Shown here piece by piece: positions 9,337 to 63,632 of a stretch of DNA of 64,000 bases. Under the pieces are notes generated by a model, which was not told where the DNA came from, searched no databases, and saw only the letters and a program-made list of their open reading frames with translations. Source of the stretch: Candidatus Saccharimonadota bacterium (lineage in GTDB: Bacteria; Patescibacteriota; Saccharimonadia; CAILAD01; BJGX01); the NCBI GenBank assembly GCA_016191105.1, contig JACPPH010000002.1, positions 67,268-131,267 on the forward strand, given 5' to 3'. The translations under genes were made by a program, and so were the position numbers. The first letter of the stretch is position 1. The number at the start of each line of letters is the position of its first letter.

Positions 9337-9413
9337 ATGCTAGATTTTCAGGTACTAATATGCTATTATAGTGTCCGAATCAATCCGCACCACCAAGAAA
9401 GTAGGTAAGAGTC

Positions 9414-9896
9414 ATGCTCCGAGGAATCCATCCGCTTCTGACGGGTGAGCTGTTGCATTGCATTAGCGACATGGGTCACGGTGACACCATAGTGATTGGC
9501 GATGGCAACTTCAGCTCCGATGCCGATGCCCGTGCGGGCAACTGTTTCACGGTCGAGCTGTGGGGCTACAACACACTCGAGATTGTACGCCAGATCCTTG
9601 GATACATGCCGCTCGACGACAAAGACGGGCCTAGCGTCCACTTCATTGCCGAGACAGGGGATGAGCCATGGGAAGCGCACGCCGTCTGGATCCGTGCCAA
9701 CTCCAACCTGGCCCACTGGGCCAGGCAGATGGGCAAGGAGCTCACAGACGTCGTGTCGATGCTGCCACGAGCCGAGTTCCACGAGCTAGCTCGCCGGGCT
9801 TACGCCATCGTGCTTACCAACGATCCGACCCACTACGCCTACTTTGCCCTACGCAAGGGTGCTCTGCCTGAGCCAGAACAGGTGAGCGTGGGTTGA
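9414..9896 (+). CDS. RbsD/FucU-family sugar mutarotase (high-GC islet)
   Basis: 'MLRGIHPLLTGELLHCISDMGHGDTIVIGD' aligns with the N-terminus of E. coli FucU, and the C-terminal 'RAYAIVLTND..YAYFALRKG' also matches. GC is about 60% against roughly 47% in the flanks. Confidence 0.75.
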   Translation: MLRGIHPLLTGELLHCISDMGHGDTIVIGDGNFSSDADARAGNCFTVELWGYNTLEIVRQILGYMPLDDKDGPSVHFIAETGDEPWEAHAVWIRANSNLAHWARQMGKELTDVVSMLPRAEFHELARRAYAIVLTNDPTHYAYFALRKGALPEPEQVSVG

Positions 9897-9973
9897 CCCC
9901 CACACAGTCCTTCACGCTGCGCGTCCTGCCCAGTATGGAGGACGCGTTGCATTAAAGGCACCCTCTCTTTACC

Positions 9974-9998
9974 AACCTAAGGGTACGACCCTTAGGTT
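9974..9998. repeat. perfect 10-bp inverted repeat AACCTAAGGG-tacga-CCCTTAGGTT
   Basis: Seen directly. It follows a second hairpin at 9920..9946 at the right edge of the high-GC islet. Confidence 0.8.
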
Positions 9999-10039
9999 AA
10001 GGTAGCATCATGTGCAGGAGATGCTCTATACTTATATGC

Positions 10040-10588
10040 ATGAAAGGTTTTGCCAAAGACATACTGTTGATGGACTTTGAATCGACCGGCATAGACCCGG
10101 TTGTTCACGAGCCAACTCAATTAGGCGCAATATTGCTCGATAAAGAGACTCTGCAAGAAAAAGATTCTTATCTTACATTTATCGGCGCAGACTTAAGCAA
10201 GGCCAGTAAAGAAGCGCTGGAGATTTCCGGAATTTCTCAAAAAGACCTAGAGGATGCCCCAGCCCAAGAAGAAGTAGCTAAAGAGTTCTTACAAAAATTT
10301 GGCACAGACGTGTTCTTGTCATCGTGGAATTCAATACTAGATAGAGGGTTGCTCGATAAAATGCTACGCATAATTGGCAAAACTATATTTGAATATGATT
10401 ATCACTACTTAGATGTATGGCCAATTTGCTATATGTACTTATGTCGCACCGGTCAAGGCGATAAACTCCGTGGTGATGCAACATTCAAAGCCTTAGGTCT
10501 ACCACAGCGCCAAAACCACGATGCGCTCGAAGATTGTCGGTACGCCGCCGAAGCACTCAAGGCCGTTTACGAAGGAAAAGAATACTAA
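10040..10588 (+). CDS. DnaQ-like (DEDDh) 3'-5' exonuclease
   Basis: 'LLMDFESTG' (Exo I) and 'HDALEDCRYAAEAL' (Exo III). The leaderless start at 10040 is supported by a TATACT -10 box 7 nt upstream. Confidence 0.75.
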   Translation: MKGFAKDILLMDFESTGIDPVVHEPTQLGAILLDKETLQEKDSYLTFIGADLSKASKEALEISGISQKDLEDAPAQEEVAKEFLQKFGTDVFLSSWNSILDRGLLDKMLRIIGKTIFEYDYHYLDVWPICYMYLCRTGQGDKLRGDATFKALGLPQRQNHDALEDCRYAAEALKAVYEGKEY

Positions 10589-11961
10589 TGCTAAAACTTT
10601 ATAATTCACTAACCAAGAAAAAAGAAGAATTTAAGCCCATTCACGCTGGTCATGCCAATATATATAGCTGCGGGCCAACGGTTTACGACCATGTGCACAT
10701 CGGCAACTTGCGTGCTTTTTTGTTGCCAGATCTGCTGCAGCGGGTTCTGCGCTACGTCGAACACCTCGATGTCACCTGGGTTATGAACATTACCGATGTC
10801 GACGACAAGATTATTGCTCGAGCCGCTCGAGACAACAAAAGTGATGAGCCAATTACTGCCCTAGGAAAGCTAGCCGATCGTTACACAGATGTGTTTATAA
10901 ATGATATTGAGAAGGTTGGAATTGACCGGGCCGACATAAGCCGTTTACCTCGAGCCACCGATAACATTGCCGAAATTCAGGAGCTAATTCGACATTTAGT
11001 AGCCAAACAAATTGCCTACATTAGCGATGGCAGTGTGTACTTTAGCCTAGAGCATTACAAAAAAGCCGGCCACAAATACGGTGTGCTAGCAAATGTGCAG
11101 TTCAATGCTCAAGCCAGAGTAATAGACGATCAAGATCAAAAAGAGGGAGTGGGTGATTTTGCGCTTTGGAAGGCTCAAAAAAGCGATGAGCCGGCATGGG
11201 ATTTCGAGATTGAAGGCCAAAACTTGCGTGGCCGGCCTGGCTGGCACATTGAGTGCTCAGTTATGAGCACCAAATACTTAGGCCAGCCCTTTGATATTCA
11301 TACTGGCGGCGTGGATCTTAAATTCCCGCATCACGAAAATGAGATTGCTCAGTGCGGCGGCGACCAAGCCCATTATTATTTGCACAATGAATTTGTTAAT
11401 GTCGAGAATAGTAAGATGGCCAAATCGGTCGGTAACTTCTTGACCATCGAAGATGTCAAAGACCCTATAGCTTTTCGATACCTGTGCCTGCAAGCCCACT
11501 ATCGTAGTGAAATGAACTACAGCAGTGAAGTTCTGGCGGCTGCCGGTGAAAGGCTAAAAAACTTGCGCAAGTACGCCGACCAACTAACTCTGGTAAAAGA
11601 GGATCAGCTGGCCGAAGATGACAAAAGTGGTAAGGTTGCTGAGTTCATGGAAAAGTTCAACCAGTCGCTACAAGATGATCTGAACAGTCCTGAAGCCTTA
11701 GCGGCTCTTAGCTTGCTTGAAGGTAAGGCTTACAATCAGCAGGCCAAAAAAGCCATGCAGTGGGCCGATTCGGTTTTGGGCCTAAGACTAGTAAATGATG
11801 AGCCTATAGCCAAGCCGGCTCAGGAGCTTATTAGCAACTACGAACGAGCTCGTGAGCGCAAAGACTATGAAGCCTCGGACAAACTGCGCGAAGAACTCGA
11901 AAAAGAATTTGGCCTCGGTGTGTCCGACACCGAGATAGGCACACTAATACATAGGCTATAA
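10588..11961 (+). CDS. cysS: cysteine--tRNA ligase
   Basis: HIGH motif 'HIGNLRAF', 'KMAKSVGN' (KMSKS), Zn ligands 'CGPT' and 'HIEC'. Confidence 0.92.
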   Translation: MLKLYNSLTKKKEEFKPIHAGHANIYSCGPTVYDHVHIGNLRAFLLPDLLQRVLRYVEHLDVTWVMNITDVDDKIIARAARDNKSDEPITALGKLADRYTDVFINDIEKVGIDRADISRLPRATDNIAEIQELIRHLVAKQIAYISDGSVYFSLEHYKKAGHKYGVLANVQFNAQARVIDDQDQKEGVGDFALWKAQKSDEPAWDFEIEGQNLRGRPGWHIECSVMSTKYLGQPFDIHTGGVDLKFPHHENEIAQCGGDQAHYYLHNEFVNVENSKMAKSVGNFLTIEDVKDPIAFRYLCLQAHYRSEMNYSSEVLAAAGERLKNLRKYADQLTLVKEDQLAEDDKSGKVAEFMEKFNQSLQDDLNSPEALAALSLLEGKAYNQQAKKAMQWADSVLGLRLVNDEPIAKPAQELISNYERARERKDYEASDKLREELEKEFGLGVSDTEIGTLIHRL

Positions 11962-11971
11962 ATGCGGTAGG

Positions 11972-11992
11972 GCGGGGGCTTTTGACCCCCGC
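11972..11992. terminator. bidirectional rho-independent terminator GCGGGGG-cttttga-CCCCCGC
   Basis: 7-bp GC stem immediately after the cysS stop, between convergent genes. Confidence 0.7.
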
Positions 11993-12009
11993 TTGTTCCT
12001 ACAGATTGC

Positions 12010-12675
12010 TTACAGGAATTCGACCTCTTTGCGGGCTTGATCGAGCGCGTTTTGGGCACGCACGCGTCCGGCCACAAAGTGCTTGGGCACCTTGCCGCCA
12101 GCCCAGAAGAAGTTCCAGGCGTACTCGCTGGGGTTGACCCACAGCAGCCGCACTGCGTGGCAGTGCTTGCCGTAAGCCACGCCACGATTGTAGTCGACGC
12201 CGGTTTTGACGTAGCCGACACCACAGAGAGCACGGTGACTGCCCTGGTTGACTAGGTCGGCACCGCTGTCGATGGCCACCAGGCCGAGCACGTCGACCGC
12301 ATAGAGGCAACGAGCACGGTGGATGGCACTGGCAATGCCCTTGCCCCACATGCCGCTGTCCCACAGCACGACGCCGCTGATGCCACGGTAGCTGCTGATG
12401 TTCTCGATGCCACTGGCGCCGATGAGGCGACCGCGACTGTCGGATCCGGGCTTGAACTCATAGATGCCCCAGCCCTGAGAATCAGGATCATCGTAGCGAG
12501 CCTTGAGCCAATCCAGCTCTTGCTGGTGGTTTTGAGCACCGCGCAAACTGAGATGGGCGCAGACTTCGTAGCGAGCCAACGGTTCGGGCACGGCTGCCAT
12601 TTCGCTTTCCAAGATGGGCTGCATGCGGATCACCAGCCCATCGGTGGTTTTGGTTTGCATAGGGAAGCCAAACAT
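12010..12675 (-). CDS. GNAT family N-acetyltransferase (RimJ/RimL-like), high-GC
   Basis: Motif A-like 'VNQGSHRALCGVGY'. About 62% GC. The frame was chosen among several overlapping shadow ORFs by the GNAT motifs. Confidence 0.6.
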   Translation of the reverse strand: MFGFPMQTKTTDGLVIRMQPILESEMAAVPEPLARYEVCAHLSLRGAQNHQQELDWLKARYDDPDSQGWGIYEFKPGSDSRGRLIGASGIENISSYRGISGVVLWDSGMWGKGIASAIHRARCLYAVDVLGLVAIDSGADLVNQGSHRALCGVGYVKTGVDYNRGVAYGKHCHAVRLLWVNPSEYAWNFFWAGGKVPKHFVAGRVRAQNALDQARKEVEFL

Positions 12676-13111
12676 GGCCTTTCCTTTCTGTAGGGAACGA
12701 ACCTCGACAACATTGTCGAGGGAGCCTTGATAATTCCAAGACTACTGTTGAGCGGATTTTGGGATTTCCAAAATCCGATAAGCCTCCAAGAATGGGTTAC
12801 AACCAGATTGTAAATTTAGCGTTTTAACCAAAAAGCCTCCATTTCGGAGGCTCATCGCATCTGAGAAATTAGTTCAATTTATGAGTTCAGTACACGATAA
12901 GCCATAGCGACACAAAGCTCGCCTTTATAATCCATAAAGGTGGGAGCGGAAATATTTGTGGTTGTATGACTATATCGGTTCATAGCGAAAGTAATAATAA
13001 CACCAACGCTTATGCTTTGTCAACAAAAATTGACAATAAAATGCAGGCGAGCCCCTCAACTCCAGCGTTAACTGGTGTCGAGGGGCTCTGGATGCGGCGG
13101 TTTGGGCAGTG

Positions 13112-13363
13112 CTAGTGAGGGCGGCGCTCTCCCTTGCCGCCTTCAAGGCACTTCCTGCAGACCTGGATCTTCTTGTTGCCAGGCTTGTACACCCATGTGG
13201 TGTAGCGGTGCTCGCTCTCGCGGCAAAGCGGCAACTTGGAGTTGTTGAGGATTTCAGCTGCAGCCAAGGTGGCTCCTTGGGGTAGGGCGCTCGAGTTGGC
13301 GCCAATGGGTGGGTGCGACAAGCGAAAACCAGGGGTCTTCGCAAGATCGCAGCCAGTATACAA
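13112..13363 (-). CDS. hypothetical small Cys/His-containing protein (high-GC)
   Basis: 83 aa with 'LCRESEHRYTTWVYKPGNKKIQVCRKCLEGG'. A long hairpin (13049..13088) lies downstream. Confidence 0.35.
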   Translation of the reverse strand: MYTGCDLAKTPGFRLSHPPIGANSSALPQGATLAAAEILNNSKLPLCRESEHRYTTWVYKPGNKKIQVCRKCLEGGKGERRPH

Positions 13364-13426
13364 TTTTAACCAAATTATATCAATAAGATTTTGCGTAAAC
13401 CCCTTAAGTTTCGGTACAATATGGTT

Positions 13427-14659
13427 ATGCTACAAGTAACCGAGTTCGATAACCACCAACTAGCTGATTACGAGGCCGACACCGACCCGATTGAGATAGA
13501 TAGGCTCAAGAGCATTGCCAAAACCCTAGAGGGTAAGAAGATTTATGAGATCAATGCCACCGCTATTGGCGGCGGGGTGGCTGAACTTTTGCATAGCCAG
13601 ATACCATTGTTTAGAGATCTCGGCTTATATGCCGACTGGCTAGTTCTACCTAGCAATAATCACTTCTTTACTATTACCAAAAACCTCCATAATTGTTTGC
13701 AAGGACACTGTGCGTTGCCAAACCAGTTCGAACTCGAGCATTACAGCAAGTATCTGCAAGAGGCAGCTGTCGATATTCCGCAAGACGGGGATCTGTATAT
13801 ACTGCATGATCCCCAGACACTCGGGCTGGCTCCGTATCTTAAAAACCACAAGCTAATCTGGCGCTGCCATATTGACCTAACCATGGCTGACCCCCATGTT
13901 CTTGCCTGGGTCCAAGACTACTACCAGTATTTTAGTAAGGTTGTATTTTCGCTCGAGGCATATGTATCGGGTTTGGAGCGCAAAAAAGTGGCCATTGTAC
14001 ACCCAGCAATCGACCCTTTGAGCGACAAAAACCGCCAGCTCAGTCAACGCGAAATAGATACCTACCTAGGCAAATATGAACTCGATATTACCAAGCCGTA
14101 CTTATTGCAGGTTTCGCGCTTCGACAGGTTTAAAAATCCTATTGGTGCTATAGAGATTTTCGCTGAGACCCGCAAATTAATTCCTAGCCTGCAGTGTGTG
14201 TTAATGGGTGATTACGCCACCGACGACCCAGAGGGGAAGCCGTACTTCGAAGAGGTACGCCAAATTGCTCGCGAGGCTGATCACGGCAACATCCATATAA
14301 TTACCCAAAAAGACGATCTGGCGGTCAATGCTCTGCAGCGCGGAGCAGCTGCGGTGTTGCAAAACTCTACCCAGGAGGGTTTTGGGCTAAGCGTAACCGA
14401 GGCTTTGTGGAAAGGCAAGTTTGTGTTTGCCAGACCAGTGGGGGGCATAGCCTTGCAAGTTATAAACGGCAAAACCGGCTTTTACCTAGCCGACAATAAC
14501 CATGATTCGGCCGAGAGTATCGCCAAGGTACTCAAAAACTCGCGCGACTACTTGCATGTCGAAGCCGATGCCAAAGAACAAGTTCGCCGCAAATTCTTGC
14601 TGCCCAAAATGGCCAATGACTATCTGCATGTCTATGCCGAAGCGCTCAAGCAGACTTAA
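13427..14659 (+). CDS. trehalose synthase TreT-like GT4 glycosyltransferase
   Basis: 'EINATAIGGGVAELLHSQIPLFRDLGLYADW' matches the TreT N-terminus, with a GT4 C-terminal domain. Leaderless: TACAAT at 13415-13420, then 6 nt, then the ATG at 13427. Confidence 0.7.
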   Translation: MLQVTEFDNHQLADYEADTDPIEIDRLKSIAKTLEGKKIYEINATAIGGGVAELLHSQIPLFRDLGLYADWLVLPSNNHFFTITKNLHNCLQGHCALPNQFELEHYSKYLQEAAVDIPQDGDLYILHDPQTLGLAPYLKNHKLIWRCHIDLTMADPHVLAWVQDYYQYFSKVVFSLEAYVSGLERKKVAIVHPAIDPLSDKNRQLSQREIDTYLGKYELDITKPYLLQVSRFDRFKNPIGAIEIFAETRKLIPSLQCVLMGDYATDDPEGKPYFEEVRQIAREADHGNIHIITQKDDLAVNALQRGAAAVLQNSTQEGFGLSVTEALWKGKFVFARPVGGIALQVINGKTGFYLADNNHDSAESIAKVLKNSRDYLHVEADAKEQVRRKFLLPKMANDYLHVYAEALKQT

Positions 14660-15193: not shown

Positions 15194-15222
15194 TTGACAA
15201 TATCCAGTACCTGTGGTATAAT
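15194..15222 (+). promoter_or_regulatory. consensus sigma-70 promoter TTGACA-N17-TGgTATAAT
   Basis: Perfect -35 box, 17-nt spacer, and an extended perfect -10 box. The next + strand CDS is 565 nt downstream. Confidence 0.65.
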
Positions 15223-15673
15223 TCAACTATCATTATTTTTGAGCTACTGGACTCCCAAATAGTGCTCAAGCTACAACTAAATACACCGCCACCCCGACAC
15301 AAGGGTCCGAACTGTTAACTAATAGCCGGCAAGACATATGAGCTTACCGCTATCACTTTCGCGAGGTTATCGCTTTAAAACAACAAAACCGGGCCTTTAT
15401 GTGGGGATGGTGTTTTGCCTATAAATGAAGCCAAAGATCTAGTAACTTTTTCGTCATTTATAAGCAAAATAGCTTTTTTTGAAAAAAGTTGGCCAAATGT
15501 TGTTGACATCAGTTATGCTTATGTTATTATCAGAAGCACTATGTTAATCAACACAGTCAAGTTAATTACTCGCACTCGAGCAAAAACAGCGCCCACTTTT
15601 GGCGCGCTTAGCGCTACCCGTGTGCCCGGACTGAGTCGTTTTATTTCATAAACTTTAGAGAAATCATTCGCTA

Positions 15674-15702
15674 GAAGCTCGGGACCACACTCTCGAGCTT
15701 CT
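15674..15702 (+). terminator. hairpin AGAAGCTCG-N11-CGAGCTTCT followed by TTAGTT (attenuator or terminator) in the ABC-exporter leader
   Basis: 9-bp perfect stem, seen directly. Confidence 0.5.
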
Positions 15703-15786
15703 TTAGTTACGGCAACCCGTAGCTAGAAGCACCAATCACATCACGATCTTTCACAACCAAACCTACGACCCCTATAAGGAGGAAGA

Positions 15787-17568
15787 ATGGGAGTCAAAAT
15801 GATGCTGCAGATGTATCGTCTGCTGCTGGCTAAGCCAGAAGTACGAGCCAAATATCGTGCTATGCGCCAAAGCATTGTCAAGGCGCTAGCACTGGTGTTT
15901 GTGGTCGAGGCGCTGTCGGTGGCCGAGGTGTATCCGCTGCGGGGTATTTTTGACGGCATGTCTGTTAAGGCTCCTGCCAGCACCCTGGTGATCTGGGTGA
16001 TTGCCATGTTTGGCATTCGCCAGGTTCACACCGTGCTCGACCAGCACAAGGAGTATCACCAGATGACAACCGACTGGCAAAACCTGGGCAACATTCTTGG
16101 TCATGGTCACGAGCACCAGCTCAGCCAGGATCAAAAGTACCAGATCGATCATTCCACCGGAGAGAAGGAGTCCACGCTTTCAAAGAACATTTGGAAGATG
16201 GAAAACCTCATCGACGTAGTGATCTACCAGGTTACGCCCATGATCATCATGATCGGGTTCATCCTGGCGGCGCTGTCGATATTCGACTGGCGCTACAGTG
16301 CTATCACCGTCGTGACCATCGCCATCTACTGCCTGGTTACCAGGCACTTCGAGAAGGTGTTTGCTCCCAAGCGCATAGAAGAGCATGAGGAATGGAAGGC
16401 AATTGAACGGATGGCCAGCGAGCAGGTTAAGGGCTGGCGGACAATCAAGTCCAATGGCCTGGAGCTACAAAAGGCTCGCGAGCTCCAGTGTGCAATCGAG
16501 AAGTTCATGCAGGCCAACGCCAAACGCCGACGGATTCGCATTCGCCACTGGGTGGTACAGAACTCGGTGTTGAGCGTTTCGATCCTGTTTATCTGGGGGT
16601 TTTCCCTCTGGCTGTACAGCATCGACGCCATGAGTACCGGCGTGTTGGTGATCATCAATGGCTGGATAGCCAAGCTTTACAGCCACATGTTCCGCTATGC
16701 CAACTTTCAACGCGAGGCCTACGAAGGCGTGGCCAGTCTCAACGACATGGTTGAGTTGCTCTCTAGTAGCTCGGCTATCGACGGTATGCCGAATGCACTA
16801 CAACTGCCCGCCTCTGGCCTTGGCTGCGAGGTTGTGCTCGACGGTGTGGGCTTTCGCTACCACGACGACGGTGAGTACGCGCTACGCGACATAACCGCCA
16901 AGCTGCCAGCAGGCAGCACGGTGGCGATTATGGCGCCATCGGGTGGAGGCAAATCAACTCTGGCCGATCTGTTGATAAGGGCATACGACACCTGCGAGGG
17001 ATCCATTTACCTCGACGGTGTTGACCTGCGCGACATAGACCGCCAACACCTCATGCAGGTGGTTGCGGCCACAGTGCTGCAAGATGCCAATCTCTTCGAC
17101 GGCACCATTGCCAGCAACATCGGCTTTGGCTGCTTGCGCGAACTGAGCCAAGCAGAGGTAGAGGTAGCCGCAAAGCAGGCCTACGCCCACCAGTTCATCA
17201 TGGAGTTTCCTGAGGGATACGACACGATGGTGGGTGAGGACGGCGTGCGGCTCAGCGGCGGGGAAAGGCAAAGGATCGCCATTGCGCGAGCCCTTGCCAA
17301 GCAACCGCAGCTGCTGATCATGGACGAGGCCACTAGTGCTCTCGATGAACCGAGCCAACGCATGGTGAACCTCTCTATCCAGGCTAAGTCAGCTGAGCGG
17401 AGCTGCACCATTGTGCTGATAGCCCATCGGTTTAGTACGGTCGAACACGCCGACTTAGTGTTGGTGCTCGACCATGGCAAGCTGGTGGACTTGGGTACCA
17501 TTGCTGAGCTTGGTGAGCGCTGCGAGCTGTTTCGACGGCTCAGGAGCGGCGAGATCAGCATGGAGTAG
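15787..17568 (+). CDS. ABC exporter, fused permease/ATP-binding protein (type I, MsbA-like), moderately high-GC
   Basis: N-terminal TM domain. Walker A 'APSGGGKSTL', signature 'LSGGERQRIAIARAL', Walker B 'LLIMDEATSALD'. RBS AGGAGG. Confidence 0.88.
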   Translation: MGVKMMLQMYRLLLAKPEVRAKYRAMRQSIVKALALVFVVEALSVAEVYPLRGIFDGMSVKAPASTLVIWVIAMFGIRQVHTVLDQHKEYHQMTTDWQNLGNILGHGHEHQLSQDQKYQIDHSTGEKESTLSKNIWKMENLIDVVIYQVTPMIIMIGFILAALSIFDWRYSAITVVTIAIYCLVTRHFEKVFAPKRIEEHEEWKAIERMASEQVKGWRTIKSNGLELQKARELQCAIEKFMQANAKRRRIRIRHWVVQNSVLSVSILFIWGFSLWLYSIDAMSTGVLVIINGWIAKLYSHMFRYANFQREAYEGVASLNDMVELLSSSSAIDGMPNALQLPASGLGCEVVLDGVGFRYHDDGEYALRDITAKLPAGSTVAIMAPSGGGKSTLADLLIRAYDTCEGSIYLDGVDLRDIDRQHLMQVVAATVLQDANLFDGTIASNIGFGCLRELSQAEVEVAAKQAYAHQFIMEFPEGYDTMVGEDGVRLSGGERQRIAIARALAKQPQLLIMDEATSALDEPSQRMVNLSIQAKSAERSCTIVLIAHRFSTVEHADLVLVLDHGKLVDLGTIAELGERCELFRRLRSGEISME

Positions 17569-17585
17569 GCAAGTGAGTGATGTGA

Positions 17586-17624
17586 GACCCCGGCAATTCG
17601 CGAAAGCGGATCCGGGGTTTTCAC
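17586..17624 (+). terminator. rho-independent terminator CCCCGG..CCGGGG-TTTTCACTTT
   Basis: GC stem plus a T-tract just after the ABC exporter stop. Confidence 0.75.
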
Positions 17625-17746
17625 TTTGTAAAAAAACTTTTCTGGCAGTTGCTACCTGCAGAATCTTGAAAAATGCAGCGTTTTCGGCTATGATTATCAG
17701 GTTAAATTGCGTAACTGCAGCTTAAAACCCAGTTTTAGCTCGACGA

Positions 17747-17821
17747 TGGGGCGTAGCCAAGTGGTAAGGCACCGGTTTTTGGTACCGGCATTCGCAGGTT
17801 CGATCCCTGCCGCCCCAGCCA
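17747..17821 (+). tRNA. tRNA-Gln (anticodon UUG)
   Basis: Cloverleaf with a 7-bp acceptor stem UGGGGCG/CGCCCCA and a U1:A72 pair typical of bacterial tRNA-Gln. D-loop 'AGTGGTAA', anticodon loop 'tt-TTG-gt', T-arm 'GGTTCGATCC', encoded CCA. Very similar to E. coli tRNA-Gln. Confidence 0.9.
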
Positions 17822-19111: not shown

Positions 19112-19546
19112 ATGATGAAGCAGGAATCAATACTATATGGTGTGATTGGCTTACTAGTGGGTGTACTGTTGGCTATGTTTGTGTCAGCCATTGTTGCTAA
19201 TTCACAAAACCAAACAATGATGCGAGCGATGTGCATGAACACGGGCAACGGAATGAATGGCTCGTCGATGAGCATGGAGAATATGACGAACCAGCTCAAA
19301 GCCAAGTCTGGTAGTGAGTTTGAGAGGGCCTTCTTAGAACAAATGACTGTACACCACCAAGGGGCTATTGGTATGGCTAACCTGGTCTTACAAAAGTCCA
19401 CAAGACCGGAGTTGCGCAAACTTGCCGAAGACATCGTTGCTGCTCAGACCAAAGAAATCAACCAAATGAAAGAGTGGCAAACACAGTGGAGCTATGCAAC
19501 TAGTTCTAGCTCAAATAGTAGTAATATGGGTGGAATGGCTAATTAA
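19112..19546 (+). CDS. DUF305 family protein (often associated with metal resistance)
   Basis: 'VHHQGAIGMA..LRKLAEDIVAAQTKEINQM' is the DUF305 signature. N-terminal TM helix. Confidence 0.65.
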   Translation: MMKQESILYGVIGLLVGVLLAMFVSAIVANSQNQTMMRAMCMNTGNGMNGSSMSMENMTNQLKAKSGSEFERAFLEQMTVHHQGAIGMANLVLQKSTRPELRKLAEDIVAAQTKEINQMKEWQTQWSYATSSSSNSSNMGGMAN

Positions 19547-19637
19547 GTAAAAGTTTGCAGCTTTGTTGCCAACACAACTGAGCACTAACAGGTTAGCTGC
19601 TAGTTATAACGCCGATGCACAAGGCGGGGCTTGATTA

Positions 19638-19654
19638 ATACCCCTCAGGGGTAT
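19638..19654. promoter_or_regulatory. candidate CsoR/RcnR-type operator ATACCCC-tca-GGGGTAT overlapping the -10 region of the repressor gene
   Basis: Perfect 7-bp-arm palindrome with C/G tracts directly abutting the TACAAT -10 box (19654-19659). The ATG is at 19669. Confidence 0.6.
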
Positions 19655-19668
19655 ACAATAAAATCAAT

Positions 19669-19953
19669 ATGAATGCTGATATAAAAAAGCGCTATGTCCA
19701 TCGCACGAGGATTATCGAGGGTCAAATCCAAGGCCTACAAAAAATGATAGACAGTGAAGCCTATTGTATGGATGTATTGACGCAGAGCTTGGCTATTCAA
19801 CGGTCGCTCGCATCATTAAACAAGCTAGTGCTCGAGAACCATTTACGCACTCACATTACAGATATGTTTGGGGCCGGCGATAGCAAAGCCCAAAAAAAAG
19901 CGGTTGCTGAGCTGCTAAGCCTATACGAACTTAACAACATTCGGGGTAAGTAA
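19669..19953 (+). CDS. CsoR/RcnR/FrmR-family metal-sensing transcriptional repressor
   Basis: 94 aa. X-Y-Z residues C33, H58 and H62 with RcnR-like 25/4 spacing. Confidence 0.8.
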   Translation: MNADIKKRYVHRTRIIEGQIQGLQKMIDSEAYCMDVLTQSLAIQRSLASLNKLVLENHLRTHITDMFGAGDSKAQKKAVAELLSLYELNNIRGK

Positions 19954-20231: not shown

Positions 20232-20376
20232 GTTGCCAAAAATGACTATAGCCAACCCCGTTCATCACGGCAGCCAACAAGATAGCGCTAAACATGCTGG
20301 CCGCCTAATAGCTATGTTTAGCAATAAGTTTTAGGAAGGTATTAACCAACAATTTAAGTCACAAAGATTAACAATA

Positions 20377-23689: not shown

Positions 23690-24307
23690 TTACTTATTTT
23701 TGCGTAGAGAACGGAGTTTGAGTGTAAGCCCTGTTAGGGCGCCGCCAGCCAACGCCACCGAAAGAGTGTCGGCTCCTCCGCCGGTGGTAGGTAGAGCAGG
23801 TGTGCTAAGAGCTACCGTGGGAGTTACGGGTGCTGGGGGTGGAGTTGGTTTGCATTCTGCGCCGCCATGGCTCGAAGACACAAACTGACCTGCAGTGTAG
23901 TCGTTGGTATTGCCACTTGGCCCAAATGGGCTTAAGCCGCGCAGCAAATCGATCTGGTAAAAGCACTGGGGCTTTTTGACTGTTAGACTACTAAAACCAG
24001 CTGGAAATGTTCCGCTTTTGGAATCTACAAACTTTTGCTGATCAAATGGCTTGCCGTCAACGCCATTGGGCGCGTCCCAGGCGGCTACAGTCACATCTTT
24101 AGTGCAAGCAGTGCTGTCGACTGTATTCTTTACCTCGAAGGTAGCGGTAACAGTATCGGCACCAACCGAATAGCTTCTGGCAAAAACTTCACATTTGTTA
24201 TTTGGTTGATCTGCAGCTTTGGCTACATTACCTGCATGAAAGCCAACCCCAACAACTGCGGCTGCAATTGTCAGGACTCCATAATTAACTATTTTACGAA
24301 CATTCAT
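23690..24307 (-). CDS. LPxTG-anchored cell-surface protein (sortase substrate)
   Basis: N-terminal signal peptide. C-terminal 'LPTTG', then a hydrophobic stretch, then 'KLRSLRKNK'. Pro/Ala/Thr-rich stalk. Confidence 0.75.
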   Translation of the reverse strand: MNVRKIVNYGVLTIAAAVVGVGFHAGNVAKAADQPNNKCEVFARSYSVGADTVTATFEVKNTVDSTACTKDVTVAAWDAPNGVDGKPFDQQKFVDSKSGTFPAGFSSLTVKKPQCFYQIDLLRGLSPFGPSGNTNDYTAGQFVSSSHGGAECKPTPPPAPVTPTVALSTPALPTTGGGADTLSVALAGGALTGLTLKLRSLRKNK

Positions 24308-28794: not shown

Positions 28795-28834
28795 TTCTTT
28801 AGCGCTCCTAAATCTTAGAATGTTCTAAAACTTG

Positions 28835-28877
28835 GGAACGCGCTGCAGGGTTGAAACCCTGCAGCGTTGCACGTTCC
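28835..28877. terminator. bidirectional hairpin CGCTGCAGGG-ttgaaa-CCCTGCAGCG with an outer GGAACG/CGTTCC
   Basis: Perfect 10-bp stem between convergent genes. Confidence 0.7.
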
Positions 28878-28880
28878 TTG

Positions 28881-29696
28881 TCAGTCAACGCTGTAGCAGC
28901 CGTTGATCGGGTTGCGAGGGCGGTACTCGTGCAGCATCCACGATGGCAGCATGGCCTCCATGAGGTCGAGCACCAACGGTTCGATCGCCTCGATCGGCGT
29001 GGACCGGCCGTACTGGTCGCGCCTGACATATGGCTGGCTGTAGACCGAATAGCTGGTCTCGCCACCCACCCGTGGATAGTGCTCCACGTAGTAGGCGCAA
29101 CCGGCGTTGACGGCAGCGGTGCTGAACACCATCTTGGTGACCTCGAGCTCGTTGTTCTGGAGGATGTTCAGCCCCTGGTGCGCGATGTTGCCACCGGAGT
29201 TGCTGTTGTGCCACCAGAACGTCAGCTCATTGCGGGTGCCGTAGCGTCCGAAGGCCTCCATGCTCCAGATGTCTCGCCTCCAGAAGCACCTGATGTCGCG
29301 CCAGGGCTGCATCGGACACAGGGAGTTGAGCACGCAGTTGTAGCACTGCATGTCTGCCCCCAGGTAGCACGCCCTGAATGACTTGCCGCAGCTCGAGCAG
29401 TGCTGCTTGGGCATGTCGATCGGCAGGCTGTCCGGGTTGCCAGGGAAGTAGGCAGTGCCGGCACCTGTACGCTCGACCACGCCCAGCTGTCGCTCGAACT
29501 CCGCATGTTGCTCGGGCGTGTAGGCGCCCGAGAGCAGACGCGCGGTGTTGCGATCGGCTTGCTCGACTTGAACCCGGCCTGGCTTGCCCAACTTGATGTT
29601 GGTGGGCTTGCTCCAGCCGTCGCTTCCTTCGCCCCAAGCCTTCTCGGGGTCGGCCACGAAGTTCAGAAGGGTCTTGAGTAGGGTATCCAGTTGCAT
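28881..29696 (-). CDS. hypothetical Cys-rich protein (high-GC islet)
   Basis: About 62% GC. The frame is supported by the RBS AAGGAGG 8 nt before the ATG and by the downstream terminator. Cys cluster 'CSSCGKSFRACYLGADMQCYNCVLNSLCP'. Confidence 0.5.
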   Translation of the reverse strand: MQLDTLLKTLLNFVADPEKAWGEGSDGWSKPTNIKLGKPGRVQVEQADRNTARLLSGAYTPEQHAEFERQLGVVERTGAGTAYFPGNPDSLPIDMPKQHCSSCGKSFRACYLGADMQCYNCVLNSLCPMQPWRDIRCFWRRDIWSMEAFGRYGTRNELTFWWHNSNSGGNIAHQGLNILQNNELEVTKMVFSTAAVNAGCAYYVEHYPRVGGETSYSVYSQPYVRRDQYGRSTPIEAIEPLVLDLMEAMLPSWMLHEYRPRNPINGCYSVD

Positions 29697-54714: not shown

Positions 54715-54971
54715 ACTATTCGATAATGCTAATGGTTAATTAAAAATTATGCAAGCACTTGAGGGCATACAAGCCTGTCCCGCATACGATGCTGCTGTAA
54801 TAACAGGATGGAATTCGTTTTACAGCAAATTGATGTGCGGCGATACAGCACTATATATGAATGTGTATATTTTTGTCAAATTAATGGCCTAAAATGCGAA
54901 CACCCCACAACGGGGCGGGATGTCCGCAGGTCGTGGGGCGTATGTTGGTGCGGCACGGTGTCGCGTGCTGG

Positions 54972-55523
54972 CTACTCGCCGGCTAGCTTGAGGCCTCGGC
55001 CCCCCAAGACGTAGACGATGGTGTCGATGTCTTCGTTGAGGAAGCCAAGGTTCAGCATGTCCTCGGAGGTGTGAGCTCGCAACTGATCGATGCTGCCGAT
55101 GCAGTTGTGGTGTAGCCGACGATGGACGACCCTGAGGGAGCTGTCCGGCACGCTTGGGTTGTCCTCGGCGCTGAACAGCTCGTCGATCTCGGCGAAGGCT
55201 TCGACGTAGACCACGGCGTTCAGGAAGTCGGCGTAGCGCTTAGCGATTGGTAGGCAGTCCGTGCCGGCCTGGAGTACGACCTCGGGGTCCTCGTGCTGGA
55301 CTCGAACCTCGAACCAGTCCAGTTGTACCTGGGCGAGACTGAAGCCTTCGATGTCGGCCAGTTCGTCGCGCAAGGCCTTGACCTTGTCGTTGAGCCGCGC
55401 CGTCTGACGCTCAGGGTCTTGGTAGATCCATGGCCGCCCAGAGTGAAGGCCGGGCTTGGTTTCGCTCAGCAGGCGCCAGAACGGGCCCGGGACCTGAAGC
55501 TTTGCTTCACTTTCTGTGTCCAT
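54972..55523 (-). CDS. hypothetical protein (high-GC islet between topA and dprA)
   Basis: About 62% GC, 183 aa, no recognised domain. Confidence 0.4.
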   Translation of the reverse strand: MDTESEAKLQVPGPFWRLLSETKPGLHSGRPWIYQDPERQTARLNDKVKALRDELADIEGFSLAQVQLDWFEVRVQHEDPEVVLQAGTDCLPIAKRYADFLNAVVYVEAFAEIDELFSAEDNPSVPDSSLRVVHRRLHHNCIGSIDQLRAHTSEDMLNLGFLNEDIDTIVYVLGGRGLKLAGE

Positions 55524-55689: not shown

Positions 55690-56541
55690 CTACACAGCCA
55701 GCCACTGACCGGCACCCATGGAGCGGATTTTGCCGGTGATCTCCATAAGGCTTAGTATTGTGGCGACTTGGGCGGCCTCTAGCCCTGTAGTGTCTATAAG
55801 TTCAGCTGTGCTGCAGCTATGTTCGGCTAGAATATCGAGTATTTGAGCTTCCTCTTTGCTATCAGCTTTGACGGTCGGTTTTTTGAGCAAGCCACTTTGT
55901 AGGCCCAAAAGGTCTAGTACATCGGTAGCGTCGGTAATGGCATGGGCACCGTGCTTTATTAGATTATTAGGTCCGGCCGAACGTGGACTGGTAATGTTGC
56001 CGGGCACAGCAAACACATAGCGATTGTTGGTTAAAGCAAAATTAGCGGTTATGAGGGTGCCCGATTTGGCATCGGCCTCGGTAATAATTACCCCAAGAGA
56101 TATGCCTGCTAGTATGCGATTGCGAGCTGGAAAGTTAAACTTTTGGGTGGCTAATCCTGGCTCATATTCCGAGATAATGGCTCCGCCCTGCTCTAATATC
56201 TGCTCGCCAAGCTTTTGATTGCCAGCCGGATAAATACTATCAATGCTGTTGCCAAGCACGGCAATGGTCTTGCCCTTGGCATCGAGCGCAGCTTTGTGGG
56301 CTACGGCGTCGAGGCCATAAGCCAGACCACTAACAATGCAAAAGCCGGCCTTGGCTAGATCATGAGCAATTCTATAGGTTTGCTGGCGACCGTAATCACT
56401 GGGCTTGCGGGTGCCCACCACCGTAATCATTGGCAGTTCAGGGATTTGCCCACGTACATAGAGTTTTTTGGGCACGCTTGCAATATCACGCAAAAGTGGC
56501 GGAAAGTACTTGCTTTTATAATCTACTTCTTGTATATTCAT
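55690..56541 (-). CDS. dprA: DNA-processing protein DprA (Smf)
   Basis: 'ITVVGTRKPSDYGRQ', 'IVSGLAYGLDAVAHKAAL'. Confidence 0.85.
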   Translation of the reverse strand: MNIQEVDYKSKYFPPLLRDIASVPKKLYVRGQIPELPMITVVGTRKPSDYGRQQTYRIAHDLAKAGFCIVSGLAYGLDAVAHKAALDAKGKTIAVLGNSIDSIYPAGNQKLGEQILEQGGAIISEYEPGLATQKFNFPARNRILAGISLGVIITEADAKSGTLITANFALTNNRYVFAVPGNITSPRSAGPNNLIKHGAHAITDATDVLDLLGLQSGLLKKPTVKADSKEEAQILDILAEHSCSTAELIDTTGLEAAQVATILSLMEITGKIRSMGAGQWLAV

Positions 56542-56598: not shown

Positions 56599-56627
56599 TT
56601 GACAAAGTAGTGCTTGTGTGATACCAT
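56599..56627 (+). promoter_or_regulatory. promoter TTGACA-N17-TGaTACCAT
   Basis: Consensus -35 box, 17-nt spacer, extended -10 box. Confidence 0.5.
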
Positions 56628-56633
56628 ACTTGC

Positions 56634-56850
56634 GATCTTGAAATCAGATATTTCCTTCGTAAAGGGAGTACTCTGCTACTCGAGAGTCAACCTAAAACTC
56701 ACCCTCCTTTTAGGTTCTCGGTAGCAGATTACTCCCTTTAATTGCCACGGTCTATAGAATAATTTTTGAGGCCGCAAAATCCCATTCGGGGGCATTAAAG
56801 GGTGTGTAAAACAGACTAGTTCGATTCGTACGGCTAGTCTGTTTTATTTT
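56634..56850 (+). ncRNA. candidate structured small RNA (about 215 nt) with an 80-nt nested hairpin and a strong intrinsic terminator
   Basis: The nested hairpin at 56660..56740 has about 32 bp paired: AAAGGGAGTA / CTGCTAC / CGAG / AACCTAAAA arms with a 'CUCACCCUCC' loop. The terminator has a 12-bp stem at 56808..56845 followed by T-rich sequence. No CDS fits. Confidence 0.4.
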
Positions 56851-57241
56851 GTGTTGTTTTTCATTTTTAAAAATACACACATAAATTACTCATGGCTGCA
56901 GATACTGCAGCGCAATATATTTACCATACCCCACTTTGTTAACAACATGCGAGCATGGAGCGTTTTTAAATTTTGATTTTGTTTGCGCCAGCGGCGCCAA
57001 GGTGCTACGATCGCTACATTTTTAGTATAAATTATAGCCGAACAAAAAGCAAACAGTTTATAGCAACAAATTCGAAGGAGCCCACAAAGTGAGTTCCTTC
57101 GTGAGCCAATCGATAGTCGGCTACCAGGGTGAGTTCGAGATCCAGCGACCGGTGGTGAACAAGGTGGTTTGCAAGCTATGGCAGTAGTGATACCATAGCC
57201 CCGAGCGGGCGTGGCTGGGCCGCCACAGCCGGCCGCACCAC

Positions 57242-57571
57242 CTACAAGGGCTGTTCACGCAGCTGGTCGAATCCGACGACGTTGGCGCATGGCTGTCCGT
57301 GGAACTGAACAATGGCTGACTCCTCTCCTGCTTGGGGGTATTCCCCGGCTTGGGTGTAGCGCACCAAGTTGGCGTTAAGGATGCTCTCTCCTAAAGACGG
57401 TTCGAGCTGTAGCTGACAATTGGGCTGCCACATCTTCTGAGTCTCCTCACCCTCGCAGGTTCTTACCTTCACACTGACCAGCACGTGCCCGGGGCTGGTG
57501 AGCATGACTGTGCAGAGCACGCCAGTGGTGAGTGGAAGGCAGTCAACTGCCTCGTGTACGGCCGCTTTCAT
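57242..57571 (-). CDS. hypothetical protein (high-GC islet)
   Basis: About 60% GC, 109 aa. Confidence 0.3.
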   Translation of the reverse strand: MKAAVHEAVDCLPLTTGVLCTVMLTSPGHVLVSVKVRTCEGEETQKMWQPNCQLQLEPSLGESILNANLVRYTQAGEYPQAGEESAIVQFHGQPCANVVGFDQLREQPL

Positions 57572-57680: not shown

Positions 57681-58238
57681 CTATAGCGAGCTAGAGGTGT
57701 GTTCCACGCCTTCGGCAAAAGCTTTTTTGATTAGCCCTTCGGTTTGGGCAATTACACCTGGTAGCTGTTCCTCTTCGGCCTGGCCAAAGCGTTGCAACAC
57801 ATAGTCGTGAGCGCCAATCTTGGCTAAATTATTGGTCTTAATACCGATTCGAAAACGCACAAAGCTCTCGCCAACTTTGTCGATAATGCTTTTAAGCCCA
57901 TTGTGGCCACCACTGCTGCCACCAATTCTTACCCTGACTTTGCCGAATTCCAGGTCTAGATCGTCAGAAACTACCCAAGTATCGGTATGGGTTAGTTTAT
58001 AAAAATGGCTTAGAGCTTGCACGGCCTGGCCAGAGTCGTTCATAAAGGTTGTTGGTTTAGCTAAAACAACTTTTTCGTCGCCGACTTGAAATTCAGAGAT
58101 TTCGGCCGAAAACTTAGAGCGCTCGTAGAATTCAAGCTCTTTTAGTTTGGCAATATGATCGACCACCATAAATCCCAGGTTGTGGCGAGTTTTGGCGTAT
58201 TCAGTTCCGGGGTTGCCGAGTCCGACGATTAATTTCAC
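57681..58238 (-). CDS. pth: peptidyl-tRNA hydrolase
   Basis: 'LIVGLGNPGTEYAKTRHNLGF'. Confidence 0.9.
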   Translation of the reverse strand: MKLIVGLGNPGTEYAKTRHNLGFMVVDHIAKLKELEFYERSKFSAEISEFQVGDEKVVLAKPTTFMNDSGQAVQALSHFYKLTHTDTWVVSDDLDLEFGKVRVRIGGSSGGHNGLKSIIDKVGESFVRFRIGIKTNNLAKIGAHDYVLQRFGQAEEEQLPGVIAQTEGLIKKAFAEGVEHTSSSL

Positions 58239-61394: not shown

Positions 61395-61400
61395 TTTTAA

Positions 61401-62738
61401 CTAGGGAGTCAAACGATTAATATCGCGCGGGAACAGGGTGGCTTCTTTGACGTTCTTGAGACCCAGTGTTAACTGGACAAAACGGTCTATGCCAAAACCA
61501 AACCCACCATGCGGTGGCAATCCAAATTCAAATGCGCTCAGATAATGTCTAAACCCAGGATGCTTGGGATCTATGCCAGCAGCCGTGATCTGTTCCACGA
61601 GCTTTTCATGGCGATGTTCTCGCTGTGGTACGGTTGCAATCTCGACACCTCTAAATAGCAGGTCAGAGCTTAGGGCGGTTTTGTCATTTTCGGGATTTTC
61701 CATGTGGTAGAACTTCATAGCCTCTTTTGGCAGATCGGTTACAAATACTGCCTCACAGCCATCGTTCTTTTTGGCATATTCACAGATCCAGCGTTCTTCG
61801 TCTGGGCGCAGATCTTTTTCGCCCACAGTATTTTCGTTGTTGGCCTTGCTGTACATTTCGTGCACCTGCGCTACCGTGTAGCGAGGAAATTCCCTGGTTA
61901 GTTTTAGCTCAGGAGAATTTAACTTTTTGAGAAGTTCGGCCTGTTCTTTGTATAGCTTTTCGAGTGTATCACGAACTAGGTCTTGAGCCAAATCCAGAAC
62001 ATCTTTGTAAGAGTCTATAAACCCAACCTCAACATCTAGCATTGTAACCTCGCTCATATGTCGGGTAGTAGCACTTGGTTCGGCACGATAGGCTTGACCA
62101 ATCTCAAAGACTCGCTCAAACACACCAACCATCATTTGCTTGTAAAGCTGCGGACTTTGAGCCAAAGTAGCCTCCTGGCCAAAGTAGTCTAGCTTAAATA
62201 CCTCGGCGCCACCTTCGGCCGATCCTGCCACTAGCTTGGGTGTTTGGATCTCGACAAAGTCATTGTTGGTCAGGTATTCACGTAAGAGTTGATTGATATG
62301 TGAACGAGCCTTAAAAATAGCCTGTTCTTGTAAGTTGCGTAAGCTCAGTGCCCGGTGTTCAAATAGAGTGTCTAAATGCTCTGGCTTGTGGCTAATGGGC
62401 TTGTCAATTTCAATTAATGGTTCGGCAGTTACCGGAACCAACACTTCGATTCTAGGGTCGTGGATCTCTACACCGCCCTGTGCTCGCTCTTCTTTTACAA
62501 CTTTACCTTCAATTTTCAAAACCGTGCCGATTTGTAGGCTGCGCAGCTTTTCAACTTCGTCTTTTTGTTCGACCACAATCTGAACTAAGCCGCCACGGTC
62601 GCGTAAACTAATAAAATTAAGGCCGCCAAGCAAACGCTTTTTATGCAACCAACCCTCTATCATCACCGACTTGCCAACAGCTTTGGCAAGTTCACTTGTT
62701 AGAGTTCTCATTGCATACATTTTAACAGATAAGGACAT
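61401..62738 (-). CDS. aspS: class IIb aminoacyl-tRNA synthetase, most likely an archaeal/eukaryal-type aspartate--tRNA ligase (AsnRS not excluded)
   Basis: Motif 2 'YRAE', motif 3 'GGFGFGIDRFV', C-terminal 'FPRDINRLTP'. 445 aa. Confidence 0.65.
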   Translation of the reverse strand: MSLSVKMYAMRTLTSELAKAVGKSVMIEGWLHKKRLLGGLNFISLRDRGGLVQIVVEQKDEVEKLRSLQIGTVLKIEGKVVKEERAQGGVEIHDPRIEVLVPVTAEPLIEIDKPISHKPEHLDTLFEHRALSLRNLQEQAIFKARSHINQLLREYLTNNDFVEIQTPKLVAGSAEGGAEVFKLDYFGQEATLAQSPQLYKQMMVGVFERVFEIGQAYRAEPSATTRHMSEVTMLDVEVGFIDSYKDVLDLAQDLVRDTLEKLYKEQAELLKKLNSPELKLTREFPRYTVAQVHEMYSKANNENTVGEKDLRPDEERWICEYAKKNDGCEAVFVTDLPKEAMKFYHMENPENDKTALSSDLLFRGVEIATVPQREHRHEKLVEQITAAGIDPKHPGFRHYLSAFEFGLPPHGGFGFGIDRFVQLTLGLKNVKEATLFPRDINRLTP

Positions 62739-62820
62739 GGTTGATCAAACCAATAATAACGAAGAAGAGCCCGAAGGACTCTCCCTCGAGCTCGGTTGTT
62801 GCACCGATCTTGGATGTTGA

Positions 62821-63516
62821 TCACGCTGGTTCGAGCACTTGGTCTCGCTTGCCGTCGACGGCCTCTTGTTCGAGGCGAGCGACTATCTGCGGTGAGACCA
62901 GTGGTTCGAACATGGGCTCTGCCTCTGGTGCTGCCACCTGTTCCTCTGTGGCGATCACCACTAACGGACAGATGCTGTGCTTCTTGGCAACTGCCGTACG
63001 TCCGATGAGCTGGATTGTGTCGCGGATTGGCCGGTTGTGCTGTTGACCAATGCTCTCACGGCTCAACTTCTTGGCTTTCCTCTTCGTGTCGAGCGCCTCC
63101 ATGGCATAGAAGGTCCCCCATAGGGCCGCAAGACTGGCGGTTGAGATACCGACCATTTCGAGAATGGCGAGGAAGTTGACGATCGCCCCAATCAGTACGG
63201 CGACCGTGCCCATACCGACCCCCCAGATGAAGAAGATTCTGCCGGTCACGCTGAGGCTCTTCTTGTGTCGACGACCCCATTTGCCGCAACGACGACTCAC
63301 ATCGCCGACGAAGCTTCCTACCGCTTCTGCCGCGTCGTTGTTGAAGACCCAGGCGATCGGCACCCAGATAACCACGACCCGCCAGTAGTGGCACAGGTTC
63401 TCGCGGTAGTCCGGTTGGTTCTTGTACTCTCCGTGCTGCTGCCAGTATTGGTAGGCTCGGGCGTGCCAGGCGTTGGGCTGCACTGTCCAGGTACCCCTGT
63501 AACTCTGACTCATGTT
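62821..63516 (-). CDS. hypothetical membrane protein (high-GC islet)
   Basis: High GC with TM helices. The internal ATG at 63516 carries the RBS GGGGAAG. The longer ORF to 63570 extends into low-GC DNA. Confidence 0.4.
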   Translation of the reverse strand, partial: NMSQSYRGTWTVQPNAWHARAYQYWQQHGEYKNQPDYRENLCHYWRVVVIWVPIAWVFNNDAAEAVGSFVGDVSRRCGKWGRRHKKSLSVTGRIFFIWGVGMGTVAVLIGAIVNFLAILEMVGISTASLAALWGTFYAMEALDTKRKAKKLSRESIGQQHNRPIRDTIQLIGRTAVAKKHSICPLVVIATEEQVAAPEAEPMFEPLVSPQIVARLEQEAVDGKRDQVLEPA

Positions 63517-63632
63517 GCTTCCCCTTGTTGGGTCGGTACTTCTACGAATAGATCTAGGCTTATTAAACACCCAAAACCATTAAAGGGCAACAAAAAAGAC
63601 CCTTGCGGGTCTTTTGAACTTTCTAAAACGAT

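Follow-up and report, generated by a model that had tools for sequence, protein, structure and literature searches.

The window analyzed here is a stretch of 64,000 nucleotides of a Candidatus Saccharibacteria metagenome-assembled genome (MAG), part of a 214-kb NCBI contig and covering locus tags HYX70_00605 to HYX70_00865. Its core genes include dnaX, dnaB, glycosyltransferase genes, ybaB, recR, an RNase T gene, cysS and a TreT-like GT1 gene; the dcw cluster, genes for a type IV secretion system-like ATPase and a sigma factor, and topA, dprA, pth and engA; and genes for a class II aminoacyl-tRNA synthetase (aaRS), a pseudouridine synthase and a D-Ala-D-Ala carboxypeptidase. Set between such genes are eight short islets rich in guanine plus cytosine (GC), each built around one open reading frame (ORF): a FucU-like gene, a GNAT gene, a small Cys/His ORF, an ABC exporter gene, a Cys-rich gene and three ORFans (o183, o109 and o249). 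These islets are very probably lineage-specific horizontal acquisitions, and one of them, the ABC exporter module, passed between two Saccharibacteria lineages that had already split.

Composition and anatomy of the GC-rich islets

The GC content of the whole window is 47.5%; the islets take up 9.3% of it and have 59.9% GC, compared with 46.2% outside them. Log-odds segmentation of GC called nine high-GC segments (Table 1), eight of which are true islets of 0.3 to 1.8 kb and 56 to 63% GC that match ORFs with a GC at third codon positions (GC3) of 0.69 to 0.85 (0.73 for the small ORF). The initial annotation had described at least eight high-GC islets with sharp boundaries in a low-GC core. The boundaries are indeed sharp, with GC changing by 15 to 25 points within 150 bp at every border, and eight segments stand; the C-terminal end of an LPxTG-like protein, which had been counted among the islets, does not. 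This ninth segment encodes the Pro/Ala/Gly/Thr-rich C-terminal stalk of that protein, and its amino acids predict a GC of 0.602 with core codon usage, compared with 0.581 observed.

Per-gene GC3 is bimodal (median 0.493, median absolute deviation 0.037, 75 ORFs), with seven ORFs at 0.69 to 0.85 and the rest at or below 0.61. When the islet proteins were recoded with core codon usage, a GC of 0.48 to 0.53 was expected, compared with 0.56 to 0.62 observed; the islets thus lie 0.06 to 0.11 over the amino-acid-based expectation, and C at third positions rises most (from 0.26 to 0.44). Amino acid composition, raised at the outset as a possible sole cause of the GC shift, accounts for only about one-third of the excess, and because recoding with core codons falls short of the observed GC, most of the excess is synonymous. 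The islets are compositionally foreign at synonymous sites.

TABLE 1 High-GC segments of the window, the islets they mark, and their surroundings (hairpins and other 3' elements lie downstream of the stop codon)
Feature	Log-odds GC segment (GC fraction)	Extent (strand)	Gene or ORF	GC3	3' element	Neighbors
Islet 1	9416-9946 (0.606)	9414..9955 (+)	RbsD/FucU-family gene, 9414-9896, 160 aa	0.71	Hairpin 9911-9955	recR (8743-9336); RNase T-like exonuclease gene (10010-10588)
Islet 2	11964-12647 (0.618)	11964..12675 (-)	GNAT (Acetyltransf_3, Pfam) gene, 12010-12675, 221 aa	0.74	Hairpin ~11966-12003	Directly downstream of cysS (10534-11961)
Islet 3	13043-13354 (0.615)	13043..13354 (-)	Cys/His ORF, 13112-13267, ~51 aa	0.73	Hairpin 13049-13088	Upstream of TreT-like GT1 gene (13391-14659)
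Islet 4	16254-17617 (0.577)	15200..17627 (+)	2.4-kb module: AT-rich promoters 15194-15222 and 15503-15530; conserved 36-aa ORF 15542-15652; conserved hairpins ~15674-15733; MsbA-like ABC exporter (Pfam, NCBIfam) 15787-17568	0.71	Terminator ~17585-17620	tRNA-Gln (17747-17821)
Islet 5	28834-29658 (0.630)	28834..29696 (-)	Cys-rich gene, 28881-29696, 271 aa	0.85 (highest)	Hairpin 28841-28866	
Islet 6	54896-55494 (0.636)	54896..55523 (-)	ORFan o183, 54972-55523, 183 aa	0.80	Hairpin ~54901-54940	topA (52429-54714); dprA (55690-56541)
Islet 7	57118-57565 (0.603)	57118..57571 (-)	ORFan o109, 57242-57571, 109 aa (76 aa per NCBI)	0.69	GC-rich structured region, 124 bp	Between dprA-adjoining conserved noncoding RNA and pth (57681-58238)
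Islet 8	62769-63497 (0.593)	62760..63516 (-)	Membrane ORFan o249/o231, 62821-63516	0.70	Terminator hairpin 62760-62793	Class II aaRS gene (61401-62738); response-regulator fragment (63633-63926)
Rejected segment	23728-23874 (0.646)	23728..23874 (-)	Stalk of LPxTG-like protein, 23690-24307	0.435		

The islets follow a common unit plan, in which a single ORF is succeeded by a stable GC-rich hairpin 5 to 40 nt 3' of the stop codon. The high-GC segment has its 5' border near the start codon or Shine-Dalgarno (SD) sequence and ends past the hairpin. The islets had been pictured as bounded by GC-rich hairpins; each has one stable hairpin, on the 3' side only. Of the eight genes, most of which had likewise been credited with an SD sequence of their own, five or six show a clear SD-like motif; in the FucU-like gene and o183 it is weak. 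Some islets have a promoter-like site in the AT-rich DNA directly before them, as with TTGACT-17-TAGTAT (29839-29811) upstream of the Cys-rich gene, which the o183 element resembles, and transcription would start at such sigma-70-like promoters just outside the GC-rich segment.

The cargo is diverse, and no paralogy was found among the islets or with the slot cargo of relatives. The FucU-like protein matches Pfam RbsD_FucU (PF05025) over residues 4 to 150, effectively full-length (E = 6.7e-21; 75.6 bits versus a cut-off of 25), and FucU chains in the PDB (E = 4.7e-16, about 1e-16), while its NCBIfam equivalog score of 49.5 is under the cut-off of 141. The small ORF noted beside the GNAT gene is best read as the 51-aa ORF at 13112-13267 (-), which has an AAGGAG SD sequence, a TTG start and a CxxxxH...CxxC pattern; no family in Pfam, NCBIfam, PHROGs or PADLOC matched it, and the exact ORF is uncalled in the public annotation. 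The AlphaFold2 model of the Cys-rich protein has a pLDDT of 87 and is without a specific PDB fold match. The o183 gene shows a coding-like pattern (GC at positions 1, 2 and 3 of 0.68, 0.36 and 0.80), and its protein is a singleton cluster. A PADLOC defense-system search of the islets gave generic ABC ATPase matches only. The motif CCTACAGAAAG, present in the GNAT leader of the window and in a FucU homologue on contig L100, was not recurrent.

A phage origin of the islets was considered but gained little support. Among them only o249 matches PHROGs, and remotely, with 99 residues aligning to phrog_944 ("membrane protein, moron"; E = 1.6e-7); o249 matched nothing in GenBank phages or IMG/VR, two family alignments likewise had no match in IMG/VR, and no phage genes lie near islet 8.

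Slot occupancy and gene histories in relatives

The comparison contigs (L numbers) came from relatives or from metagenome assemblies bearing homologues of islet genes. The nearest relative found, L012 (50% GC, CysS 77% identical), was found among the members of the ABC exporter's 90% cluster; scanning metagenomes with CysS gave no relative above 61% identity. A species-genome scan based on DprA returned environmental Saccharibacteria/Patescibacteria MAGs only (59 to 64% identity, 36 to 40% GC), and therefore the window organism belongs to an environmental, groundwater-type lineage and not to an oral one. That the MAG is of groundwater and not of oral type speaks against the actinobacterial donors proposed in the initial annotation.

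Relatives allowed a comparison at five slots; at four of them the islet gene is missing from relatives that have kept the flanking synteny. In L013 to L015 nothing separates recR from the RNase T gene, which leaves the FucU slot empty. The genes o183, o109 and o249 are absent from L001 to L003, and at two of these slots L004/L005 lack the gene as well, with flanking synteny retained: the dprA-topA spacing is 133 bp in L001 to L003; the pth-dprA gap is 326 to 408 bp in L001, L004 and L005 and holds only the noncoding RNA in the L001-L005 alignment; and the aaRS and response-regulator-like genes give tblastn matches about 90 to 270 bp apart in L001 and L003 to L005. Since these slots are empty in syntenic relatives, o183, o109 and o249 are lineage specific.

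Three slots hold differing cargo in other relatives and therefore behave as hot spots. At the dprA-topA slot, L004 carries a 974-aa gene of normal GC and L006 two ORFs, and the occupant in L005 is a 167-aa ORF with raised GC. In L012, the slot between recR and the RNase T gene contains a CYTH gene in place of the FucU-like gene, and the slot between cysS and the GT1 gene contains two ORFs, one of 64 aa with a DnaJ-like Zn finger and one of 113 aa at 60% GC. A further insert in L012, a 213-aa Asp/Glu/Ala/Thr-rich low-complexity ORF of 65% GC at 11962-12603 (+), lies between the ABC exporter and tRNA-Gln and fills what is a gap of 180 bp in the window. The piecemeal acquisition that had been proposed, with islets specific to the lineage, is thus supported by the comparison with relatives.

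As a separate observation, the dprA-topA-slot ORFs at L005 10910-11413 (-) and L006 2138-3277 (+), although unlike in length, share a helix-hairpin-helix domain at their C termini that is similar to the RpoA C-terminal domain (E = 4e-6 in BLASTP between the two; weak PglW match). A relationship of o183 to these ORFs was examined and discarded, as BLASTP shows no similarity.

The ABC exporter module is the only islet common to the window and L012. Its alignment to L012 9400-11810 shows 84% nucleotide identity, rising to 99% in 15603-15702, and the conserved block, from about 15200 to 17600, stops sharply at either end. The exporter copies are 92% identical in amino acids, compared with 57 to 85% for flanking core genes, and 0.70 identical at third positions, compared with 0.36 to 0.48. 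The proportion of synonymous differences (pS) is 0.46 for the exporter (synonymous divergence, dS, 0.71) and a saturated 0.71 to 0.85 for the flanks; the ancestor of the exporter copies is therefore much younger than that of the flanks, and the module was thus exchanged after the two lineages had split.

Upstream of the exporter, a region at 15503-15733 (+) comprises a promoter, the 36-aa ORF MLINTVKLITRTRAKTAPTFGALSATRVPGLSRFIS and two hairpins, the hairpins being nearly invariant between the window and L012. Seven of the 10 differences in the 36-aa ORF are synonymous, and the stretch 15603-15702, 99% identical, has a folding z score of -3.35. This leader region may be a leader-peptide attenuator or encode an exported peptide.

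A second discordant history comes from the GNAT family. Between L101 and L104 (8001-8666), two close relatives that carry the gene at the same locus, its pS is 0.74, compared with 0.40 to 0.66 for eleven flanking genes, and no gene of the neighborhood has diverged more (82% amino acid identity versus 84 to 95%), which suggests replacement by a divergent allele. Gene history is thus discordant with the flanks for the ABC exporter and GNAT genes; the other islets are without a second copy.

The window comes from a MAG and its islets are short, so foreign reads could in principle have been spliced into a Saccharibacteria contig during assembly or binning. We consider this exceedingly unlikely. 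The arrangement of islets plus flanks is seen not only in the 214-kb NCBI contig but also in separate Logan contigs (41.8 and 62 kb), the window DNA having also been assembled from run SRR12113392; the ABC module occupies the same locus in a different sample; the pattern recurs in unrelated assemblies; and the SD sequences and terminators of the ORFs fit their slots.

Source of the islet genes and their GC3 elevation

Saccharibacteria are known epibionts of Actinomycetota, and the initial annotation had proposed that the islet genes were taken one by one from high-GC actinobacterial hosts. This lifestyle agrees with the proposal, as does a GC3 of 0.7 to 0.85, which fits a donor genome of about 60 to 70% GC. 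Donor searches with three of the eight islet proteins, the Cys-rich, GNAT and FucU-like ones, against 5.8 and 1.8 billion sequences gave a different picture. Their best identities were 51%, 61% and 51%, respectively, all to metagenomic proteins, and no match bore an Actinomycetota name in databases where about a quarter of the proteins carry names. The Cys-rich protein has 12 homologues, all unnamed and metagenomic (39 to 51% identity), that form with it a 13-protein family with invariant cysteines. The GNAT protein has 14, each exactly 221 aa long (52 to 61% identity), and the sole organism name among them, Patescibacteria group bacterium, belongs to the same MAG as L001, which is related to Saccharibacteria and carries the gene at a different locus. 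The top matches of the FucU-like protein (1.84 billion representatives) are metagenomic singletons.

No islet protein had cluster mates at 90% identity or above except the ABC exporter, through its copy in L012, and among four islet proteins searched in a plasmid collection two had no match and the others none above 37% identity. The contigs bearing homologues have gene content like that of the candidate phyla radiation (CPR) and 39 to 58% GC, and they show no gene-content overlap with the window. Homologues in CPR-like genomes at the same loci and with the same GC would have pointed to ancestral genes; homologues exist and are GC-elevated, but their loci differ. From the proteins searched, an origin of the islets in actinobacterial hosts is thus very unlikely. 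These donor results agree with a survey of 125 aquifer Patescibacteria genomes, in which most inferred single-gene transfers were among Patescibacteria (109 donor events) and an Actinomycetota donor appeared once (PMC12455944), that single case being a point in favor of host-derived genes.

Members of the islet families have a GC3 above the local median in all 14 gene-genome pairs, which are not independent of each other (mean offset, +0.20). The offsets are +0.21 to +0.35 for the Cys-rich family, +0.07 to +0.24 for GNAT, +0.12 to +0.33 for the FucU-like family and +0.16 to +0.22 for the ABC exporter. Across the pairs, the GC3 of the gene correlates with that of its host (Spearman 0.75). No GC3 elevation is seen in ribosomal-protein, SodA or AhpC genes; since these proxies for highly expressed genes are not raised, expression-linked codon bias is unlikely. 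Other Patescibacteria-like contigs also contain short segments 10 to 20 GC points over background beside homologues (L093 9601-10400, L097 8801-10200, L100 2401-3700, and L098 5201-6400 and 13400-14600), and therefore the islet pattern is not unique to the genome of the window.

We hypothesize that the source is a GC-richer accessory gene pool circulating mainly among Patescibacteria and not the actinobacterial host, because detectable homologues occur only in Patescibacteria-like contigs, at other loci and with GC3 offsets of +0.07 to +0.35; we give this source about an even chance. The graded offsets agree with amelioration following import from sources of higher GC. A GC bias linked to frequent exchange is also possible, because no source lineage of high GC came to light and the GNAT gene, at its kept locus in L101/L104, still has an offset of +0.07 to +0.12. 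The lasting GC-richness in every genome thus has two candidate explanations, incomplete amelioration after repeated import or a recombination-linked, GC-biased process.

The same observations could be turned toward vertical inheritance. If the islet genes were old residents of the Saccharibacteria pangenome, passed on with relocation and loss, their GC3 would have to be kept up by some force acting on these genes in particular, for example GC-biased gene conversion at recombination hot spots or selection on mRNA. That family GC3 tracks host GC3 while always staying above it, that the GNAT gene remains elevated at one locus in L101/L104, and that its divergence from the L001 genome lies within the core range all agree with such residence. 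Against it, the slots are empty in several relatives and loci differ between clades, the ABC exporter and GNAT genes depart from their flanks in synonymous divergence, the highly expressed gene proxies are not elevated, and the 0.2 to 0.35 offsets and 150-bp-sharp borders exceed recombination-linked GC3 shifts, which are said to be far smaller. Long-term residence is on balance improbable.

Insertion of the units and comparison with known systems

A cassette-like insertion mechanism was the second idea raised initially, whereby a dedicated system (integron-like, with terminal inverted repeats, or tRNA-targeted) would insert promoterless units of an ORF plus a hairpin. The anatomy invites this comparison, as every unit is an ORF with a 3' hairpin and a 5' border near the start codon, and the ABC module adjoins tRNA-Gln. 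Within the window, however, no motif is common to the islet borders, no long-range inverted repeats bracket any islet, and no attC-like pair (RYYYAAC-N40-130-GTTRRRY) occurs in any slot, compared with 0.8 expected by length. Those window genes that have Pfam calls include no integrase or transposase domain. The hairpins are 20 to 45 nt long, unrelated in sequence and terminator-like, and the units are dispersed over 54 kb without forming an array, only the ABC module adjoining a tRNA gene. The islets do resemble integron cassettes in being promoterless-looking ORFs with a 3' structured element and a promoter outside; they differ in lacking attC boxes, intI, attI and an array, and in having short, unlike, terminator-like hairpins.

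Outside the window, a Cys-rich homologue (P0010) on L106 (1803-3356; also on L107 to L109) lies directly after tRNA-Ala(tgc) within perfect inverted repeats of 140 to 144 bp, and the 1.27-kb segment was assembled in opposite orientations in different samples. This unit may be an invertible or mobile cassette or may reflect assembly ambiguity. It speaks for a cassette mechanism, together with a 14-nt perfect inverted repeat around the Cys-rich homologue on L010, but the window has no homologue of the L106 repeat. We regard a dedicated cassette mechanism as quite improbable for the islets.

Our overall account, which we favor with some confidence, is that the islets are horizontally acquired single-gene units from a GC-richer Patescibacteria pool. 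Such units, consisting of an ORF, its own ribosome-binding region and a 3' terminator-like hairpin, would have entered intergenic slots between core genes. Both insertion and allele replacement might have occurred when DNA that had been taken up recombined across the conserved flanks, a mechanism that we propose tentatively and rate somewhat below even.

Several points weigh against this account. No donor was identified for any islet, and the organisms of L009, L010, L093, L097, L098, L100 and L106 were assigned from gene content alone. The slot between cysS and the GT1 gene (GNAT gene and 51-aa ORF) is covered by L012 alone, which has other cargo there, and the Cys-rich slot has no comparison relative, so that acquisition at these two slots is argued mainly from composition. 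With 58% identity to its counterpart in the L001 genome, the GNAT protein falls within the core range of 49 to 70%, and vertical descent of that family with relocation is conceivable from the sequences. The recombination mechanism is one that we infer. Finally, acquired bacterial genes are reportedly usually AT-richer than their hosts, and a GC-rich pool therefore needs an explanation of its own.

The kind of phenomenon is already known, namely, acquired islets at hot spots and horizontal gene transfer among Patescibacteria. Genomic islets have reportedly been described as core-gene-flanked transfer hot spots without mobility genes. The islets of the window are like them in being short, lineage-specific inserts at fixed intergenic positions with varying cargo, no integrase and turnover presumably by flank recombination; they differ in being single genes of 0.3 to 1.8 kb that are GC-richer than the host, from families that are GC-elevated in every genome examined. 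Amelioration of transferred genes, also reported previously, would leave a gradient of offsets such as that of the GNAT family, as for different residence times, whereas here no GC-rich donor lineage appears in 5.8 billion protein clusters and the offset persists at a kept locus. The work on transfer in groundwater Patescibacteria cited above (Gios et al. 2025, PMC12455944) is similar in habitat, phylum, mostly Patescibacteria donors and the transfer of ABC transporters; in the portion drawn on here, it does not describe a GC-rich class or slot-level turnover, and the present analysis adds dS discordance at one locus.

The unusual and reproducible feature is that these mobile genes are GC-richer than every genome carrying them. 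One broader reading is that they represent a Patescibacteria-wide class of mobile modules (ORF, 5' leader and 3' hairpin) with a GC3 0.1 to 0.35 above that of any genome, maintained by GC-biased exchange or by an unrecognized GC-rich vehicle and turning over at hot spots without a mobility gene; we consider this speculative and rather unlikely. Should the GC-rich accessory pattern prove general, it would matter for bacterial GC-biased gene conversion and for detecting horizontal transfer in CPR genomes by composition. The window also gives a base-pair-scale view of gene gain in a streamlined epibiont genome, with single genes entering a few slots between essential genes, and the attractive story of gene theft from the host is removed as unsupported.

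Two features beside the islets deserve mention. The pth-dprA gap contains a structured noncoding RNA gene at 56599-56850 (+), with a promoter (TTGACA-17-TACCAT) and a predicted transcript of about 215 nt ending in a hairpin and a T-run. No Rfam family matched this RNA, which is kept in L001 to L005 with compensatory changes in its long stem; its apical loop, CUCACCCUCCUUUUAG, resembles an anti-SD sequence. Between islets 4 and 5, a metal-homeostasis cluster of normal GC (19112-23551) encodes a DUF305 protein, a CsoR-like repressor, a P-type ATPase and a cation-diffusion facilitator.

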